A stretch of DNA of 53,627 bases, from positions 1 to 53,627 of the IMG/VR virus record IMGVR_UViG_3300044951_001798; one strand, 5' to 3'. This document shows positions 3,067 through 31,532 of the stretch, piece after piece; within the stretch, counting starts at the first letter, position 1; every line of letters begins with the position of its first letter. The notes under the pieces were generated by a model. It was not told the origin of the DNA and searched no databases. It was given only the letters and a program-made list of their open reading frames with translations. A program made the position numbers and the translations under genes. This stretch comes from a virus. Taxonomy: Duplodnaviria; Caudoviricetes.

Positions 3067-3309
3067 TTATTATCCTTGCGTTTTGATATTTTTATGTAAT
3101 TATTTTGGGCGTTTCGGCTTCGCCGCCGGTTGTCCTCTGGCTACGCTCCGCTTCGGTCTCGCCATAAAGCCGGCGAGACTACCCGCCGGCCCCCCTAACG
3201 CTTAACAACACAAGCACAAGCAAAAAAAAGAAATCCAGTGCGAGCCACGATCCTGGATCACCGACCGCGAAAGGGGAGAGCACAACGAAACCCTGGCTCT
3301 GAACACGTT

Positions 3310-3654
3310 TTAAGCCACGATGTCCTCAGCGATGTGGTGATAAACGCCATCGGAATTAGCAGGCAGCCATTTTCGAGATTGCAATACCCGGAACTTGTCT
3401 GCCGAAACAAGCATTAGATCGAAATCCATTCTATGTGCGACACCAAGAAGGAGGATAAAAACATCTGCTATCTCGGTTTGAAATTCTTTTTTGTTATCTA
3501 TGGTTGGATTGTTAAAATAATTAGTTGCGGCTTCTTGAACTTCACATATCTCCAAATCGAGATGCGCCATTTGGCCAGATAAAGTAGATTCTGGAAACGT
3601 ATCTTGTCCCCAGGTGCCGATGTAACGTTGGAATCCAGATAACTTGGTTGTCAT
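3310..3654 (-). CDS. dATP/dGTP pyrophosphohydrolase-like (DUF550/MazG fold)
   Basis: WGQDTFP..HLDLEICEV..EIADVFILL..KFRVLQSRKW. Confidence 0.7.
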   Translation of the reverse strand: MTTKLSGFQRYIGTWGQDTFPESTLSGQMAHLDLEICEVQEAATNYFNNPTIDNKKEFQTEIADVFILLLGVAHRMDFDLMLVSADKFRVLQSRKWLPANSDGVYHHIAEDIVA

Positions 3655-3794
3655 GTTTCACCCTTTTAAAGCAGCCATTAAAAACATCATGGCTGCTCTG
3701 GTTGCAATCAACAAGGTTTTGGCTTCCCCTTGGGTTTACCACCCTTCTTAACTGGTTTTGTTGCTTTCTTTGTCATAGTAATCACCTCCTTTTT

Positions 3795-4770: not shown

Positions 4771-4955
4771 TTTTTCACCGTTGAAATGGCTGCCTGCCAG
4801 CAGTCCCAATAACTCGGGATACTGCCATTGATGCTGTTGTTCCATTCAAGAAATCTATTGATATCTGTTGATGTCAGAGCTTTTTCTTTTTGTGATGCAA
4901 CAGATACATGTAAATCAATATCAGTTTCACATACTGGACATTTGATAATCGCCAT
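4767..4955 (-). CDS. Small protein with CxxC
   Basis: MAIIKCPVCE; coupled to neighbours. Confidence 0.5.
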   Translation of the reverse strand: MAIIKCPVCETDIDLHVSVASQKEKALTSTDINRFLEWNNSINGSIPSYWDCWQAAISTVKK

Positions 4956-5299
4956 TATTTGCCTTTTTTCTTCACGGACTTCTTCACAACAGAATCTCTG
5001 CGAACGATTGTACAGATATCCGTGTCAGCAATTTTTTTGCACCCAGAAACATCCTGCACGGTAGGATAATTTCGTATTTGTTCGAACAACACGGATTCTT
5101 CTTCAGGTTTATCAACGGCGATAAGCACGTCGATGGATGCACAAAAATACTCGCCGGCTGGACGTAAAAGACCGGTAATAGTCATCGGGTCTTCATCCAT
5201 GAGTTTGAATCTGTCCGTGATCCTGATTTCGTCAAGATATACCCCGAGAGATTCGATTGATGATATTTTTTCAGCCAATTTAATAAGCAGATTTTGCAT
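4955..5299 (-). CDS. Hypothetical phage protein
   Basis: AAGGA RBS before MQNLLIK at 5299. Confidence 0.5.
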   Translation of the reverse strand: MQNLLIKLAEKISSIESLGVYLDEIRITDRFKLMDEDPMTITGLLRPAGEYFCASIDVLIAVDKPEEESVLFEQIRNYPTVQDVSGCKKIADTDICTIVRRDSVVKKSVKKKGK

Positions 5300-25488: not shown

Positions 25489-25929
25489 TCACCAATCCAG
25501 TATCATTTGGTAGAGACGCAACACCCTGAATAAATGCCCCTTAACGTAAATATCCTTGGAGTGTTTTTTATAATGCAACATTCTCATCAAAAGAAGATCA
25601 TGAAAAGAATATTGATTCATAAATTCTCTAAGATCGCCATTTATGAGAGTTTTTAACGTTCCTGGCCCTTGATTGACGCAAGTGTCGAAGCATACCAGAT
25701 CAAATGGAAAAGGTAGGTCGTCACATCCTGCTTTATCCCAATACTTTGTCTTGTAGATAATCGCAGCCTTTTCGATTGACATATCTCGTGTTACCTCAGG
25801 ATTATACCTTGACGATAACCCCCACACAGTAAATCCACCACCTGCATTCCCAGGATCGTGTTGATCGGTAGAAAGTTTCCCCTCCAGTTCCAGTACTGCT
25901 CTCAGCGAGCGGTCGAAATTACGCTTCAT
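25489..25929 (-). CDS. Endolysin, glycosyl hydrolase family 108
   Basis: LEG..HDPG..T.WG..AAIIYKTKYW..FDTCVNQG. Confidence 0.88.
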   Translation of the reverse strand: MKRNFDRSLRAVLELEGKLSTDQHDPGNAGGGFTVWGLSSRYNPEVTRDMSIEKAAIIYKTKYWDKAGCDDLPFPFDLVCFDTCVNQGPGTLKTLINGDLREFMNQYSFHDLLLMRMLHYKKHSKDIYVKGHLFRVLRLYQMILDW

Positions 25930-26482
25930 CACATTCTCCTTTTTTATCAGTAGCTCTACGGCCAAATGGCGCTGAAATTATTGCACTGTTTGCTCGTAAT
26001 TTCAATGCTTTTTCCAACTCATTAATCCTATCTGTATGATCAGATCGTTCTCTCAAAACCAAATCGTGGATGCTGAACATGGCTTTATTTGATTCCTGAT
26101 TAGCCATAATTGTAGCAAGTTTCTCATGGATTTCAAGCCAGCAAGCATGCGTTTTGTTGTTAGCTTCATGCCGTTTTAAATCCTGCAAATTTATGCACGC
26201 TTGTATTTCATCAATTTTTTTTTCTAAAGAATCCCTTACTTTATCTCTGCTTTTAATACAGTGCGCTGTTTCTTCTTCACACATTGTCTTTGTCATAACA
26301 TGCTTCATGTCCTTGATATAATAATCCTCCATGCTTTCGACTTTAGTTTCAAGTTTTTCAATTACTTTCCTAAGTTCGTCGAGAACTCTGATGTTATTTT
26401 TGAATACGAATGCTGCACCACCAAAAGCAAATGAGAACGTAATAAGCGGTATCAGAATGTCAATGTGGTCGAAGATGTTCAT
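25919..26482 (-). CDS. N-terminal TM plus coiled-coil protein (lysis-associated)
   Basis: Single TM then heptad-rich region; overlaps endolysin start. Confidence 0.55.
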   Translation of the reverse strand: MNIFDHIDILIPLITFSFAFGGAAFVFKNNIRVLDELRKVIEKLETKVESMEDYYIKDMKHVMTKTMCEEETAHCIKSRDKVRDSLEKKIDEIQACINLQDLKRHEANNKTHACWLEIHEKLATIMANQESNKAMFSIHDLVLRERSDHTDRINELEKALKLRANSAIISAPFGRRATDKKGECDEA

Positions 26483-26493
26483 GAGTTTTTTCC

Positions 26494-26847
26494 TTAAGGA
26501 TGGACGGTCATTGATTCGACTGCAAATGTCTTTCGAGATTTCCACTCAGCTTTTTTGCCTGGATTGAAATTATTCACAGGTCTGTAATAGCCAACTGAAC
26601 GCGAATACACCTCCGTTCGAGGATTAAACACCGGAGACTTTGCGTAGCAGCCATCGCATTTCATCAGATACTCAGTCGGTGAGTGCCAGTCTGCCGGTGG
26701 CTGGAATACTGCGCCGCCAATGATAGTTGTTTCATTGCTGTCCTGAGCTGCCGTGACAATGACAGATGAATGACAGTCCATACATTCACCCTCGAAAATG
26801 AAAGGATTCTGTATTCTAAGCAATTCTTTTAGTCTTTCAAGTTTCAA
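26494..26847 (-). CDS. Stand-alone NrdD-type zinc-ribbon / glycyl-radical domain protein
   Basis: CMDC..CDGC..TEVYSRSVGYYRPVNNFNPGKKAEWKSRKTF matches the class III RNR C-terminus; GGGAGG RBS before TTG at 26847. Confidence 0.8.
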   Translation of the reverse strand: MKLERLKELLRIQNPFIFEGECMDCHSSVIVTAAQDSNETTIIGGAVFQPPADWHSPTEYLMKCDGCYAKSPVFNPRTEVYSRSVGYYRPVNNFNPGKKAEWKSRKTFAVESMTVHP

Positions 26848-26849
26848 AT

Positions 26850-27074
26850 TTAAAAGCCTCCCTTGATGTTCGCCCACATTCTCACCCCAATCCATGCCAG
26901 CATTGCCATTGCAGGATGCCCTTTACTCGCTATACAGCGTCTTAACTCACGATCCGCTGCAAGACGTATAGCTGCTGATTTACTTTCCAAAGCAAGCACA
27001 CAGCCCGCATCATGCGCCTGTCAGCACTCTATCCAGTTTCCGTTTGGGAATCCTGTACAGCGGTTATCCTGCAT
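26850..27074 (-). CDS. PLA2-like CCxxHD protein with in-frame TGA (candidate selenoprotein, or pseudogene)
   Basis: MQDNRCTGFPNGNWIEC*QAHDAGCVLALESKSAAIRLAADRELRRCIASKGHPAMAMLAWIGVRMWANIKGGF; TGA at 27021-27023; fills the gap between coupled neighbours exactly. Confidence 0.7.
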
Positions 27075-27693
27075 TGATAATATCTTTCTTCGCCCAGGTA
27101 TCCGCAAGGAACATCTGTCCCCACACAAAAACCTCGGCAATCATCTGACTTGCGGCTGCAAGTGAAACATCATGGACTGCATTATCATAATCCCTGATTG
27201 ATACAGTCGAAGGTTGAAACGCTGATAACCCTACCATTAATTGAGTCCATCGAACTAACGATGTCTCGTCAACTTGCAACTTGATCCCATTCGAGCAAGT
27301 CATTCCTGCGTCCTGAATTGCTTTTTGGGATATTGCAAGATTCGCAAGAGCCTTTTGCTTGTTGATCTCAATTATCTCTTCTGGAGTTTTTCCATAAAGT
27401 GGATCACGTTTTAACTCTTCCAAAGCATCTCGCTCAGCACGATTAAGATACTCAGGATTCTCTATGTATTCTTCATCTCCAGTATCATCGCTTCTCCCAA
27501 TAGAGATATATTTTGCATCAAAATACTCTTGACGGTATTTATTGATTTTCTCTTGAATAGCAAATTCAAGATTATTGGCTATAGCATTGTCAATCCAGGC
27601 TTGTGGGTCAACTATGCAGTGAGCGAGGATCGCGTTGTCTTCTGCAATCTGCTCAGGTGTTTTTGTGACTATGATCGGTTCTTCTATTGGCAT
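27064..27693 (-). CDS. Tail-fibre assembly / DUF4376-like protein
   Basis: C-terminal GIKLQVDETS..IRDYDNAVHDVS; follows a fibre gene. Confidence 0.6.
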   Translation of the reverse strand: MPIEEPIIVTKTPEQIAEDNAILAHCIVDPQAWIDNAIANNLEFAIQEKINKYRQEYFDAKYISIGRSDDTGDEEYIENPEYLNRAERDALEELKRDPLYGKTPEEIIEINKQKALANLAISQKAIQDAGMTCSNGIKLQVDETSLVRWTQLMVGLSAFQPSTVSIRDYDNAVHDVSLAAASQMIAEVFVWGQMFLADTWAKKDIINAG

Positions 27694-27708
27694 TTATTTT
27701 GCTCCTTT

Positions 27709-29408: not shown

Positions 29409-31532
29409 TTAAAATGTAGAAGAACTCTGGACTGTACACGGATCAAATAAAGCATAAGAACTCCCACTTGCTCGCTTTGCGCAAATCCTGAAAACCAATA
29501 ACATATCGTCTGCTTTGGTATAGGATAAAGCTGATGATTGCCAGTCAGAACTATCAACCGCAATCCACTCTGCAAGTGGTGTATTCGACACAGAAACAAG
29601 CGGATCAGCAGCCAAACTAATAATCTGGAAATGTAGTCTTTGATCCGCTGTCAAGCCTGTCGCATCATGCTTTGCAAACACAGGAAACTGTAAATAATTA
29701 CTTCCTGTCCTGGATATTTCCCAGTCAAAGACATTCCAAAACCCGCCATCAACGTAATTGAATTTATGACTATACGCATGATTAGCAGGGACTACAGTTG
29801 TTTCATGGGTTAGTGTGCCACCAGCAGACCAGCCACGGGTATCGTTTGCAATCCCACCGTACTTGAATGCTCTTCCTCTGATCAGCGGCCCTGCGGTTAT
29901 GCCAGAGTATGTCACATCAGTTGTGTTGCCTGAAAATGAACCAAGAAATAAAAATCCTGCGTAGTTAACGCCGGAGGAACATCCAGAAATAACACCTGAT
30001 ACAGTATGGCCAGAGCCAGAGTTAACGCCGGAGGAACATCCAGAAATAACACCTGATACAGTATGGCCAGAGCCAAAGTTAACGCCGTAGGAACATCCAG
30101 AAATAACACCTGATACAGTATGGCCAGAACCATAGTTAACGCCGTTGAAACATCCAGAAATAACACCTGATACAGTATGGGCAGAGCCAGAGCTAACGCC
30201 GTAGGAACATCCAGAAATAACACCTGAGATAGTGTGACCAGAGCCAGAATTAACGCCGATGGTACAGCCAGAAACAACACCTGAGACGGTGTGACCAGAG
30301 CCAGTGTTAACGCCGGAGGAACATCCAGAAATAACACCTGATACAGTATGGCCAGAACCATAGTTAACGCCGGAGAAACATCCAGAAATAACACCTGATA
30401 CAGTATGGCCAGAACCACTATAAATAGCACTGTCTGCTCCAGAAATAGTCCCTGAAAAAGTATGGCCATAACCTTGGTTAACACAACGGGAATAAAAAGT
30501 TACACCAGTTCCACTACTATTTCTTAGCTCACAACCTATTTTATTCCCCGTGAACGTGCTTACCCCATAATCTATTATTGCCTGAGATGCGGAAGTGCCA
30601 GCAGATCGTACAGATACATTCCGGCTGATTAAGTGTATCTTTGCACCAGGATATTGAACAGAGTCCACATTCGCTGATAAAACAATTGTTCCAGCATTAA
30701 TTGTGGTTAGCTGTAATCTTTGCTGGTCATAATTTTGCGGCCCAGCGTTAGCCAGAACGACGTGATCGTGACCATCAGTTGTTACCCATCCTGTGACAGC
30801 CGTAACGTCATCCAGAACATTTATAGTGGCTGTACTGGTGCTGGTATGGCCGGTATAAACATCTATATCACCAGTGCCATCAGTGGTTAAATCAATTACC
30901 AGTCCCGCTGAATATGCAGCCAGCTTAAACGTATCAGTTGCGGTACTCACTACAAAGTATATCGTATCTGGTTGCAGCGGCGCAGGAAGTGTCCCAGATG
31001 ACATAATCATTACAGCCGTTGCATTCGCTAAGCCGTGACTGGTTTTGGTTAGGGTGTCAGCAGAAGCCGATCCCGTGACTCTGTGCTTAACGCCATAAGT
31101 TCTTACAGACTTGACCGACGGTTCATAATCATAGAGCATCAAGTCAAGATACAGAGCATCAATCTTGGATGTCCCCTGTAAATCAATTATTGCTTTATCT
31201 GCATACGGAAGTGCTGTTGTTCCTGCAAAGGTTCCTTCCGCATTAGCAACTAATTGTCCTCGATTCGCAAAGTTTGTTCCGACTAAATTATAACCAGTCC
31301 TGATTTTAAGATGTCCTGATGTTCCTGCCTTAAAATACAGCATTCCCGGAGTTGTGGCATGTCCTGATATTGTAACTGTTTGTAGTCCCGTGTATGCACT
31401 TAAGTCGTCATTCATCAGGACTTCATGACCTGCTGCAATCACAACAGCATCATTATCAGCAGGCTTAACCCCTCCTACCCAAGTTGCTCCTGTTGCCCAC
31501 GCTCCAGAGGCATTTGAAGTTATAGTCGCCAT
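29409..31532 (-). CDS. Tailspike-like protein with G8-like N-terminus and beta-helix repeats
   Basis: SGAW..ATWVGGVKP..DAVVIAAGH; HGL..GTLP..L..YFV..FKLA insert; 19-aa repeats. Confidence 0.7.
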   Translation of the reverse strand: MATITSNASGAWATGATWVGGVKPADNDAVVIAAGHEVLMNDDLSAYTGLQTVTISGHATTPGMLYFKAGTSGHLKIRTGYNLVGTNFANRGQLVANAEGTFAGTTALPYADKAIIDLQGTSKIDALYLDLMLYDYEPSVKSVRTYGVKHRVTGSASADTLTKTSHGLANATAVMIMSSGTLPAPLQPDTIYFVVSTATDTFKLAAYSAGLVIDLTTDGTGDIDVYTGHTSTSTATINVLDDVTAVTGWVTTDGHDHVVLANAGPQNYDQQRLQLTTINAGTIVLSANVDSVQYPGAKIHLISRNVSVRSAGTSASQAIIDYGVSTFTGNKIGCELRNSSGTGVTFYSRCVNQGYGHTFSGTISGADSAIYSGSGHTVSGVISGCFSGVNYGSGHTVSGVISGCSSGVNTGSGHTVSGVVSGCTIGVNSGSGHTISGVISGCSYGVSSGSAHTVSGVISGCFNGVNYGSGHTVSGVISGCSYGVNFGSGHTVSGVISGCSSGVNSGSGHTVSGVISGCSSGVNYAGFLFLGSFSGNTTDVTYSGITAGPLIRGRAFKYGGIANDTRGWSAGGTLTHETTVVPANHAYSHKFNYVDGGFWNVFDWEISRTGSNYLQFPVFAKHDATGLTADQRLHFQIISLAADPLVSVSNTPLAEWIAVDSSDWQSSALSYTKADDMLLVFRICAKRASGSSYALFDPCTVQSSSTF
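29958..30413 (-). repeat. Eight tandem 57-bp coding repeats (SGHTVSGVISGCxxGVNxG)
   Basis: GTTAACGCC recurs every 57 bp (29964, 30021, ...). Confidence 0.95.

Follow-up and report, generated by a model that had tools for sequence, protein, structure and literature searches.

An unannotated phage gene for a phospholipase A2-like protein with an in-frame UGA that is most likely read as selenocysteine

The window analysed in this study is the complete 53,627-nt stretch of IMG/VR virus record IMGVR_UViG_3300044951_001798 (Duplodnaviria; Caudoviricetes). Its minus strand contains a 74-codon frame with one internal TGA at codon 18, located between putative fibre genes and the lysis module. The features of the locus are as follows.

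27064..27693, minus strand: upstream gene of 209 aa with a weak DUF4376 match (PF14301, E 1.1e-4, 23 bits, under the 25-bit cut-off); its last 11 nt overlap the start of the hidden gene, so that translational coupling is likely
26850..27074, minus strand: hidden 74-codon gene for a phospholipase A2 (PLA2)-like protein, read with TGA as selenocysteine (Sec); ATG at 27074..27072, stop TAA at 26852..26850
27021..27023, minus strand: in-frame TGA, codon 18, at the second Cys of a CCxxHD motif (family column C18); candidate Sec codon
26993..27020, minus strand: 10-bp stem with 4 G.U pairs that starts directly after the TGA and excludes the following hairpin
26988..27012, minus strand: candidate SECIS hairpin with core stem GCGGGC (27008..27003) / GCTTGC (26997..26992) and loop UGUGU (27002..26998); a 3-bp extension UGA (27012..27010) / UUG (26990..26988) lies across a 1x1 internal loop
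26494..26847, minus strand: downstream gene with a TTG start 2 nt after the stop of the hidden gene, a stand-alone C-terminal glycyl-radical piece of anaerobic ribonucleotide reductase NrdD (PF13597, positions 520-562 of 562, 33 bits, over cut-off)
25489..25965, minus strand: endolysin of glycoside hydrolase family 108 (phrog_315, E 4.4e-19; PF05838, E 2.1e-15), marking the lysis module two genes downstream

The hidden gene had been recognized in a first-pass annotation made from the sequence alone, and we confirm this observation: every statement on the sequence holds. The ATG lies within the overlap with the upstream gene, whose stop TAA is at 27066..27064, and the frame reads MQDNRCTGFPNGNWIEC-TGA-QAHDAGCVLALESKSAAIRLAADRELRRCIASKGHPAMAMLAWIGVRMWANIKGGF. 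The hairpin begins twelve nt after the TGA, and the alternative stem exists as well. The frame is absent from a table-11 ORF list except as two pieces of 39 and 49 aa, and it fills the only 168-nt gap in this part of a densely coding map. Its placement between fibre and lysis genes is also correct, although the large upstream proteins are taken for tail fibres by position only, as no family matched them. The NrdD piece is a conserved neighbour of the PLA2-like gene and was found next to it in the related loci L001, L014 and L023. L023 shares the upstream arrangement as well.

Read through the TGA, the protein belongs to a large family of small phage and prophage proteins related to group XIV PLA2. 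It matches phrog_6098, a phage protein family of unknown function, at E 1.6e-13 across the TGA (residues 4-66 on profile positions 5-65 of 78) and finds 187 proteins at E<=1e-3 among 1.84 billion cluster representatives. In contrast, a megablast of 26400..27700 against phage records gave no match, and a tblastn search of these records with the read-through protein, a test proposed beforehand, returned only 4 weak matches in 2 phages with 33-41% identity. Two further scans of viral sequences with the L014 and L001 proteins returned only their own contigs.

The PLA2-like assignment of the first-pass annotation is borne out. A profile of 81 family members hits the solved group XIV PLA2s 7ygk, 4aup, 8k1w and 1faz at E 6e-5 to 4e-3, with C6 and C18 aligned to PLA2 cysteines. 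An AF2 model (pLDDT 91) predicts three helices spanning residues 15-31, 34-50 and 54-71. Among 78 chains aligned to it, the top three are these PLA2s (Z 7.1, 6.8 and 6.7; rmsd 2.4-2.6 over 68-70 of 74 residues). However, unrelated helical proteins follow at Z 6.0, and Foldseek against PDB gave no match at E<=0.001, with E-values above 1, so that the structural comparison does not settle whether the fold is shared. The His-Asp dyad lies in the first long helix and a supporting Asp in the second: H21 is invariant, and D22 and D41 are present in 143 and 145 of 150 representatives.

Group XIV secreted PLA2s (Streptomyces violaceoruber PLA2, 1faz/1lwb; Tuber borchii TbSP1, 4aup; PF09056) have two conserved structural disulfides (PMC11525133). 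They are about 120 aa long, compared to about 74 aa here. The phage-borne protein has an extra CC doublet and no room for a signal peptide, since only five residues (MQDNR) precede the first conserved Cys; no signal predictor was run. The window protein itself matches no Pfam model at E<=1, whereas 6 of 81 family members match PF09056 at E<=0.01. Likewise, 6 of 81 match DUF1353 (PF07087) at E<=0.01, but the window protein does not. The DUF1353 protein TtaP is a verified small PLA2 of the typhoid-toxin islet, distantly related to group XIV and with relatives common in prophages, but it lacks the four disulfide cysteines (PMC11525133). The present family, whose phospholipase activity was not assayed here, has invariant C6/C18 and near-invariant C17/C47. 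Among the 150 representatives, C6 is Cys in 143 of 143 and C18 in 145 of 145 that have a residue there. C17 is Ala in 3, and 2 of those 3 have Asp at C47. This pairs C17 with C47 and leaves C6 with C18, the inferred disulfide partners; the distance between residues 6 and 18 was not measured in the model.

Is the TGA real? A sequencing or assembly error, for which we found no support, is the least likely of all explanations considered. Support for the TGA in the reads had been named in advance as a test. The TGA stands with 0 differences in contigs of other runs: DNA run X18 (record 7), which was not flagged as a possible source, and the RNA-library runs X19 (record 13) and X20 (record 17). The stretch is identical in contigs of the four runs compared, and no variant was listed at 27021..27023. 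RNA-library contigs can come from carried-over DNA, but the TGA is also present in the diverged L001.

An inactivating nonsense mutation, the alternative named in the first-pass annotation, would require only a single base change from TGY to TGA and would leave a pseudogene or short fragments. One condition set beforehand for rejecting the Sec reading was that all close relatives carry TGC/TGT without a conserved hairpin. The closest relative, L001 (80% amino acid identity in alignments A2/A3; 79% by tblastn), has a different N-terminus and different flanks but the same TGA. It also keeps the hairpin through four pair-preserving changes (G.U to A-U twice, G.U to G-C and U.G to U-A). In codons 19-74, dN/dS between the window and L001 is 0.17, with 16.5 synonymous differences on 38 sites against 13.5 non-synonymous on 130 (Fisher p 4e-5), and differences by codon position are 6/6/18. 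No in-frame restart codon is shared, as the GTG of the window is GCG in L001 and the ATG of L001 is ATA in the window. Moreover, the catalytic His-Asp lies after the TGA, so a fragment would lack either it or the N-terminal loop. The TGA is retained in genomes with different flanks, and there are four events at two Cys columns. The pseudogene reading is contradicted for the window clade by the dN/dS test, and overall we consider it very unlikely.

In-frame TGA recurs at invariant Cys columns in three other lineages of the family. Loci L012 and L014 have TGA at the first invariant Cys, column C6; dN/dS after it is 0.35 (p 0.014). Locus L088 has TGA at C18, while its 57% relative L141 has TGT. 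A chromosomal prophage-like gene in genome G008 has TGA at C18 as well. This gene is a singleton on a very long branch without a close relative in 301 genomes of its order, which precluded a selection test, and it alone could be decaying. On a 49-row tree the Sec label needs 4 changes, and well-supported branches force at least 3. Among the 14 rows compared at DNA level, the window and L001 have TGA at C18 where the other 12 have TGC/TGT. Of 62 pattern matches in viral contigs, 59 were chance matches scoring at most 19 bits, which the pattern itself explains. Genome hits flagged with one TGA in genomes G085 and G609 proved to be terminal stops, and the G609 gene is DUF1353-like.

Each of the in-frame TGA codons at C6 or C18 is followed by a 6-7 bp hairpin with G[G/U] early in the loop, 15-22 nt downstream. 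The published bacterial SECIS model (PMC13188914) asks for a loop of 3-9 nt, a stem of 4-16 bp, G in the first two loop positions (mostly G[G|U]), a spacing of 16-37 nt and an MFE <= -7.5 kcal/mol. The window hairpin (loop UGUGU, 6 bp, spacing 18) fits this model with -8.4 kcal/mol in context, but reaches only -7.2 in isolation. The hairpin of L001 (UGUGC, 6 bp, 18) has -9.0, that of L012/L014 (GGUCA, 7 bp, 22) -6.1 in context and -5.6 in isolation, and that of L088 (AGGU, 7 bp, 22) a region MFE of -7.8. The G008 hairpin (CGGUACA, 7 Watson-Crick bp) starts its loop 15 nt after the UGA, one short of the limit, and with the strict limit our scan finds no qualifying hairpin there. In this geometry-specific scan, as good a hairpin occurs at 1.3% (window), 1.2% (L001), 3.1% (L012/L014), 4.3% (L088) and 2.8% (G008) of positions in the respective loci. 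At the same columns, the 12 rows with a Cys codon score only 0 to -4.7 kcal/mol, although at column C6 the L012/L014 hairpin (-5.6) is barely stronger than the best of them (-4.7).

The hairpins are short, and several observations do not favour them. Folding energies of the 48-60 nt after each TGA are not unusual against shuffles (z = -0.6 for the window, -1.9 for L001, +0.1 and +0.3 for L012/L014). The minimum-energy fold of the window prefers other pairings (-11.4 kcal/mol for 48 nt, -15.5 for 60 nt). The competing stem has -11.4 kcal/mol in the window, whereas in L001 it has one mismatch and -8.0; its loop begins 10 nt after the UGA, outside the range of the model. Covariation rests on two sequences per clade. 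A search of 26700..27200 against Rfam at E<=10 gave two chance-level rows and no SECIS family, and bSECISearch was not run.

A general reassignment of TGA in this phage or its host, as in code 4 or 25, is contradicted by the use of TGA as an ordinary stop and is highly improbable. Phages with recoded stop codons in late genes exist, and the record, estimated to be only 56% complete, could lack a suppressor tRNA. However, the window is densely coding under table 11, and 20 of 64 chosen ORFs of 80 aa or more end in TGA, often with the next gene starting at once. No tRNA gene was found in the window. L088 uses TGA both inside and at the end of the same gene, and no other gap in this part of the map needs TGA read-through. 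Like stop-codon-recoded phages, the window has an in-frame stop in a gene next to the lysis module, but only one codon is affected, at a Cys column. Many in-frame copies of the recoded stop in late genes, a stop not used as a terminator and a suppressor tRNA would mark such a phage, and the window does not show them.

Absence of Sec machinery from the host had likewise been set in advance as grounds for rejection. No SelA was found in the window record itself. The major head protein of the window is 98% identical to one in a MAG, G001 (C329), and 55-65% identical to genes on contigs that reach 78 kb to over 1.15 Mb in other genomes of that class. G001 also holds L023, a syntenic Cys-form locus. 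This MAG has SelA (partial), SelB (369 bits), tRNA-Sec (77 bits) and a SelD with its own in-frame TGA. G008 has SelA, SelB and tRNA-Sec, and SelA is present in 5 of 5 further genomes with head-protein relatives. As the link rests on short contigs binned into a MAG and on more distant integrated relatives, these data leave it undecided whether the true host of the window phage possesses the machinery.

The best explanation, which we hold with good though not full confidence, is SelB/SECIS-dependent Sec insertion. In this view, the gene encodes a 74-residue, three-helix, PLA2-like protein with a His21-Asp22 dyad, and UGA at codon 18 is read by host SelB with Sec-tRNA(Sec), SelB being recruited by the small hairpin 12 nt downstream. 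The interpretation of the first-pass annotation, a Cys-to-Sec phage protein with a bacterial-type SECIS, is supported, and none of the conditions it had set for rejection was fulfilled, the one on the host being judged from the linked lineage. Our analysis demonstrates the frame and its family, the conservation of the UGA under purifying selection, its recurrence at the two invariant Cys columns, a hairpin of SECIS geometry after each UGA, the ordinary use of TGA as a stop elsewhere and Sec machinery in the linked host lineage. That Sec rather than another residue is inserted is inferred, as there is no protein-level evidence and selenium incorporation was not measured. It is also inferred that Sec18 forms a selenylsulfide with Cys6, replacing the invariant disulfide of the family. 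If so, production of this late-module protein depends on host selenium and on the low efficiency of Sec decoding. An enzymatic role in membrane phospholipid hydrolysis during lysis or entry is inferred from homology and gene position only.

Programmed leaky termination is the main competitor, but we regard it as unlikely. Here, the UGA would be read at low frequency by a near-cognate tRNA (Trp or Cys), perhaps helped by the hairpin, keeping the amount of a membrane-damaging protein low without involvement of selenium. Purifying selection after the UGA implies that some read-through must occur, the hairpins are weak, that of G008 breaks the spacing rule, and an over-produced phospholipase would, by our inference, be toxic. 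On the other hand, an attenuator could sit at any codon, whereas all four independent UGAs sit at the two invariant Cys columns. Trp, the usual bacterial UGA misreading, would replace a residue that never varies in 143-145 representatives. Furthermore, the loops share G[G/U] at the start and lie 15-22 nt from the UGA, as SelB-binding elements do, and the linked hosts have the Sec machinery.

Bacterial selenoprotein genes such as those of formate dehydrogenase H and SelD likewise have an in-frame UGA, here aligned with Cys in homologues, and an immediately downstream SECIS hairpin bound by SelB, which here lies inside the coding sequence. In SelD of the linked host, the UGA is followed by 13 nt and an 8-bp stem with loop GCUC. 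The phage and prophage stems are shorter and weaker than this element (6-7 bp against 8 GC-rich bp). Sec in known bacterial selenoproteins mostly sits in redox-active sites and not in structural disulfides, whereas the Sec position here is one half of a predicted structural disulfide. The family is not named in the selenoproteome review or the deep-Sep paper that we searched, in which 'phospholipase' and 'phage' have 0 occurrences each. Virus-encoded selenoproteins turned up in the literature searched only in poxviruses and none in bacteriophages, although lists of predicted families in the supplements of PMC12013277 or PMC13326102 could contain the present one. The poxvirus glutathione peroxidases (molluscum contagiosum, fowlpox) also depend on the Sec machinery of the host, and in fowlpox the SECIS lies in the coding region (PMC8310308). 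Those genes, however, belong to eukaryotic viruses, have a eukaryotic SECIS and were captured from cellular redox enzymes. In our case the element is bacterial in type, the family is phage-typical, and Sec arose repeatedly from Cys within it.

A more far-reaching reading is possible but tentative, and we consider it somewhat less likely than not. The family may have replaced one partner or the other of the single invariant disulfide C6-C18 with Sec at least three or four separate times. The resulting selenylsulfide cross-link would hold a tiny three-helix enzyme together in the reducing, anoxic cells of selenium-using hosts. These would be the first natural bacteriophage selenoproteins and a case of structural rather than catalytic Sec, and the output of a late, membrane-directed phage protein would depend on host selenium supply and SelB.

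If Sec is indeed inserted, several things follow. Gene callers systematically miss such genes, as seen here from the two pieces into which the frame was split. The family would add a new selenoprotein family with four very small natural SECIS elements that can be tested in reporters. Repeated Cys-to-Sec replacement at both halves of one predicted disulfide gives a natural test of what Sec offers outside catalytic redox sites. Finally, phages of selenium-using anaerobes can exploit the Sec machinery of the host, and a phage late-module gene is tied to host selenium status.

The 53,627-bp viral record, estimated at 56% complete, carries on its minus strand a 74-codon frame whose ATG lies inside the last 11 nt of the upstream gene and which is interrupted only by a single TGA. 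The features of this block are as follows.

27074 to 26852..26850, minus strand: the 74-codon frame, from its ATG at 27074 to its TAA at 26852..26850
27023..27021, minus strand: the in-frame TGA
26494..26847, minus strand: the next gene, opening with a TTG two nt after the stop, a 117-aa NrdD-like protein
26494..26895, minus strand: the same gene as it appears in the table-11 ORF list, starting at ATG 26895 inside the 74-codon frame
29409..31532, minus strand: a 707-aa protein with about eleven tandem copies of a 16-residue unit (SGHTVSGVISGC[SF][SYN]GVN[YSTF]G), without a PHROG match, which we take by its position for a tail fibre or spike

A table-11 ORF list shows the frame only as two fragments of 39 and 49 aa, whereas in a greedy gene map it fills a 168-nt gap in an otherwise tightly packed minus-strand block. 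As the syntenic gene of locus L023 (see below) starts at the TTG directly after the stop, the longer call beginning at 26895 is probably an artefact that helps to hide the 74-codon gene. The hairpin GCGGGC-TGTGT-GCTTGC starts 12 nt after the TGA, and the alternative stem mentioned in the first-pass annotation is also present. Thus, what the first-pass annotation had observed at this locus was confirmed in every detail.

The downstream gene consists only of the C-terminal zinc-ribbon and glycyl-radical piece of anaerobic ribonucleotide reductase NrdD (PF13597 positions 520-562 of 562, 33 bits). It is the constant downstream neighbour of the PLA2-like gene, being found also in L023 (5226..5576) and in the viral contigs L001 (about 3222..3689) and L014 (about 3225..3743), where it carries an extra N-terminal CxxC...CxxC extension in L001 and L014. 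It might serve as a 'spare part' for a damaged host NrdD, and it points to an anaerobic host.

Read through, the protein matches phrog_6098 at E 1.6e-13 over residues 4-66, across the TGA, but no Pfam model. An exhaustive HMMER search of 1.84 billion cluster representatives returned 187 relatives at E<=1e-3, mostly of 70-120 aa. An alignment of 81 rows revealed the family signature C[TS]xFPxGxWxxCCxxHD ... RxxADxxLxxC ... GVR, in which C6, C18 and H21 are invariant and C17, D22, D41, L44 and C47 nearly so. A profile of this alignment reached solved group XIV phospholipases A2 (7ygk, 4aup, 8k1w, 1faz) at E 6e-5 to 4e-3, with C6 and C18 falling on PLA2 cysteines, and 6 of 81 members match Pfam Phospholip_A2_3 and 6 match DUF1353. 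An AlphaFold2 model (pLDDT 91) has three helices, and its three best structural matches are those same PLA2s (Z 7.1, 6.8, 6.7; rmsd 2.4-2.6 over 68-70 residues). Unrelated helical proteins follow within about one Z unit, so that the fold match alone would not decide the assignment. DUF1353 was recently shown to include a real PLA2, TtaP, which is distantly related to the group XIV enzymes, lacks their two structural disulfides and has prophage DUF1353 proteins as relatives (PMC11525133). The present family therefore lies between the two as a minimal, phage-borne, disulfide-bearing PLA2-like protein.

The first-pass annotation had named a simple TGY-to-TGA nonsense mutation as the alternative to a selenocysteine codon, and had listed lack of support in the sequencing data among the outcomes that would speak against its proposal. 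Contigs of a DNA run not flagged as the possible source, and of two RNA libraries, cover 27021..27023 without any difference, showing that the TGA is real. The two RNA libraries (X19 and X20) are freshwater metatranscriptomes whose contigs cover most of the block 26400..27700 with 0 differences. This is compatible with transcription of the tail-fibre-to-lysis region in nature, although these contigs could still derive from carried-over DNA. The closest relative found, L001 (79-80% aa identity; an 11.5-kb viral contig), has a different N-terminus and different flanking genes but the same TGA. Moreover, selection acts on the frame. Between the window and L001 the 56 codons after the TGA differ at 16.5 synonymous sites of 38 and 13.5 non-synonymous sites of 130 (dN/dS 0.17, Fisher p 4e-5), with differences by codon position of 6/6/18, and the 13 aligned codons before the TGA show 2/2/8. 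No restart codon is shared, as the in-frame GTG of the window is GCG in L001 and the in-frame ATG of L001 is ATA in the window. Thus, the TGA is not a defect, and ribosomes must pass it.

TGA is not generally a sense codon here. The window is densely coding under table 11, 20 of 64 chosen ORFs of 80 aa or more end in TGA, and no tRNA gene is present in the window. In a further viral contig, L088, the candidate gene (4891..5148) starts in an ATGA overlap with the upstream stop, contains one internal TGA and also ends in TGA, so that one gene uses this codon both internally and as its terminator.

Whether homologues carry TGA at this column beside Cys forms had likewise been proposed in advance as a check. 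A metagenome scan gave 18 loci, which were translated. Of these, L005 is the L001 contig, and L012 and L014 have TGA at the first conserved Cys (MKTKY-TGA-TGF..NWSDCCRIHD), whereas the other 15 have Cys codons at both columns. L012 and L014 share 90% of the gene's bases but have unrelated downstream flanks, and dN/dS is 0.35 (p 0.014). Two degenerate DNA patterns run over the viral collection gave 62 stretches, of which an HMM screen kept three, namely the L001 and L014 contigs again and the new L088, which has TGA at column C18 in a different subclade while its 57% relative L141 has TGT. Among the pattern matches, an identical 38-residue read-through frame (SICVGKFRGTWKTC-TGA-SDHDK...) recurs in 13 viral contigs (L086, L092, L093, L099, L104, L106, L117, L124, L126, L129, L130, L131 and L134) and with one residue changed in a 14th (L103). 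With 19 bits it is not a family member, matches the pattern by chance and is probably an off-frame reading of a conserved gene.

A search of 401 genomes of the class of a linked MAG found the family in 60 of them. One member had TGA at column C18, a chromosomal gene in a 5.7-Mb contig of the genome G008 (locus L071, G008:C3 about 4698595..4698873). It lies directly after a gene whose C-terminus resembles, by eye only, the weakly DUF4376-like protein upstream of the window's gene, and just downstream a sequence looks, again by inspection, like a tRNA gene on the other strand, which would suit a prophage remnant at an integration site. Neither resemblance was tested. A second sample of 401 genomes from the phylum added no further case. 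On a 49-row tree the Sec-bearing rows need four changes of state, and well-supported branches force at least three.

Among 150 representatives, C6 is Cys in 143 of 143 and C18 in 145 of 145 that have a residue there. C17 is Ala in three, two of which have Asp instead of C47. This co-loss pairs C17 with C47 and leaves C6 with C18, in agreement with the pairing in classical PLA2s (29-45 and 44-105). The two columns that carry TGA are thus inferred to be the two halves of one predicted disulfide, distances in the model not having been measured. 

The consensus bacterial SECIS model, as quoted in a 2026 review (PMC13188914), asks for a loop of 3-9 nt, an upper stem of 4-16 bp, G in the first two loop positions (mostly G followed by G or U), 16-37 nt between UGA and loop, and an MFE <= -7.5 kcal/mol. 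The elements observed after each TGA were the following.

Window: 6 bp (two G.U), loop UGUGU, spacing 18, -8.4 in context
L001: 6 Watson-Crick bp, loop UGUGC, spacing 18, -9.0
L012/L014: 7 bp, loop GGUCA, spacing 22, -6.1
L088: 7 bp, loop AGGU, spacing 22, region MFE -7.8
G008: 7 Watson-Crick bp, loop CGGUACA, spacing 15

Conservation of the hairpin in relatives had been part of the same prior check. Between the window and L001, four of the nine pairs of the extended stem differ and all four keep pairing, by changes of G.U to A-U twice, G.U to G-C, and U.G to U-A, the last two coming through a Leu-to-Ser codon change. In a simple scan for contiguous-stem hairpins with this geometry, as good a hairpin followed 1.3% (window), 1.2% (L001), 3.1% (L012), 4.3% (L014) and 2.8% (L088) of all positions in the respective loci, and 2.1% for G008, but there only if the lower spacing limit was relaxed to 15. 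Whole-segment folding energies, in contrast, were ordinary against shuffles, and the window RNA can adopt competing folds of lower energy. The isolated energies of -7.2 (window) and -5.6 (L012/L014) miss the -7.5 threshold, Rfam returned nothing, and bSECISearch was not applied. At column C18 the 12 rows with a Cys codon score 0 to -4.6, against -7.2 and -7.6 for the two TGA rows, whereas at column C6 the contrast is small, the 12 Cys-codon rows scoring 0 to -4.7 against -5.6.

[quoted passage not shown] One genome-collection hit, L023, lies in a MAG titled 'Deltaproteobacteria bacterium' (G001) and is syntenic with the window. The upstream gene ends in the same ..IINAG with an overlapping ATG, followed by a 74-aa Cys form, the TTG-start NrdD-like gene, a coiled-coil protein and an endolysin. 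The major head protein of the window is 98% identical to a gene on another G001 contig, 85% identical to one in the genome G031, and 55-65% identical to genes on contigs that reach 78 kb to over 1.15 Mb in other genomes of the class, 15 of 401 genomes matching at E<=1e-10. The link of this very phage to G001 rests, however, on binning of short contigs, which leaves its actual host undecided. G001 has a partial SelA, SelB (369 bits), tRNA-Sec (77 bits) and a SelD, and G008 has SelA, SelB and tRNA-Sec. SelA is also present in 5 of 5 further genomes that hold head-protein relatives. The SelD genes of G001 (L047) and of a second linked MAG, G002 (L046), carry an in-frame TGA (…G-TGA-A…KIGP) followed by a GC-rich hairpin, of 8 bp in G001, so that these hosts make SelD as a selenoprotein and offer native SECIS elements for comparison. 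The linked host lineage is thus Sec-competent.

The literature searched describes neither a natural bacteriophage selenoprotein nor a PLA2-like selenoprotein family, although supplements and subscription journals were not covered and this is not proof of absence. A review of viral recoding names only the glutathione peroxidases of molluscum contagiosum and fowlpox (PMC8310308), a prokaryotic selenoproteome review has no occurrence of phage, virus or phospholipase (PMC13188914), and the deep-Sep paper has none of phage, viral or phospholipase (PMC12013277). A marine trace-element study states that its other families have few or no viral sequences (PMC9402790). The decoding mechanism considered here is the known bacterial one, whereas the carrier (a phage), the family, and the position of Sec in a predicted structural disulfide are new.

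Taken together, the interpretation offered in the first-pass annotation, a phage selenoprotein, is supported, and the computational case for it is strong. The reality of the TGA, selection on the frame after it and its recurrence at two invariant Cys columns are shown by the sequences, whereas insertion of Sec, the C6-C18 bond and enzyme activity are inferred, neither selenium incorporation nor phospholipase activity having been assayed. In the reading that we consider likely, the mRNA is translated during late expression from an ATG coupled to the upstream gene. At UGA-18, SelB with GTP and Sec-tRNA(Sec) would bind the hairpin 12 nt downstream and insert Sec, and the product would fold as a three-helix PLA2-like enzyme in which Sec18 bonds to Cys6. 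The task of the protein, whether attacking host membrane lipids at lysis or at entry, follows only from homology and from its place between putative tail-fibre genes and a GH108 endolysin. As to why Sec is used, our preferred but unproven idea is that a selenylsulfide holds better than a disulfide in a reducing anoxic cell, as Se-S bonds have lower reduction potentials. Alternatively, the inefficiency and selenium dependence of Sec decoding might throttle a membrane-damaging protein. The fact that either partner of the same predicted bond has been replaced favours the cross-link idea over a catalytic role.
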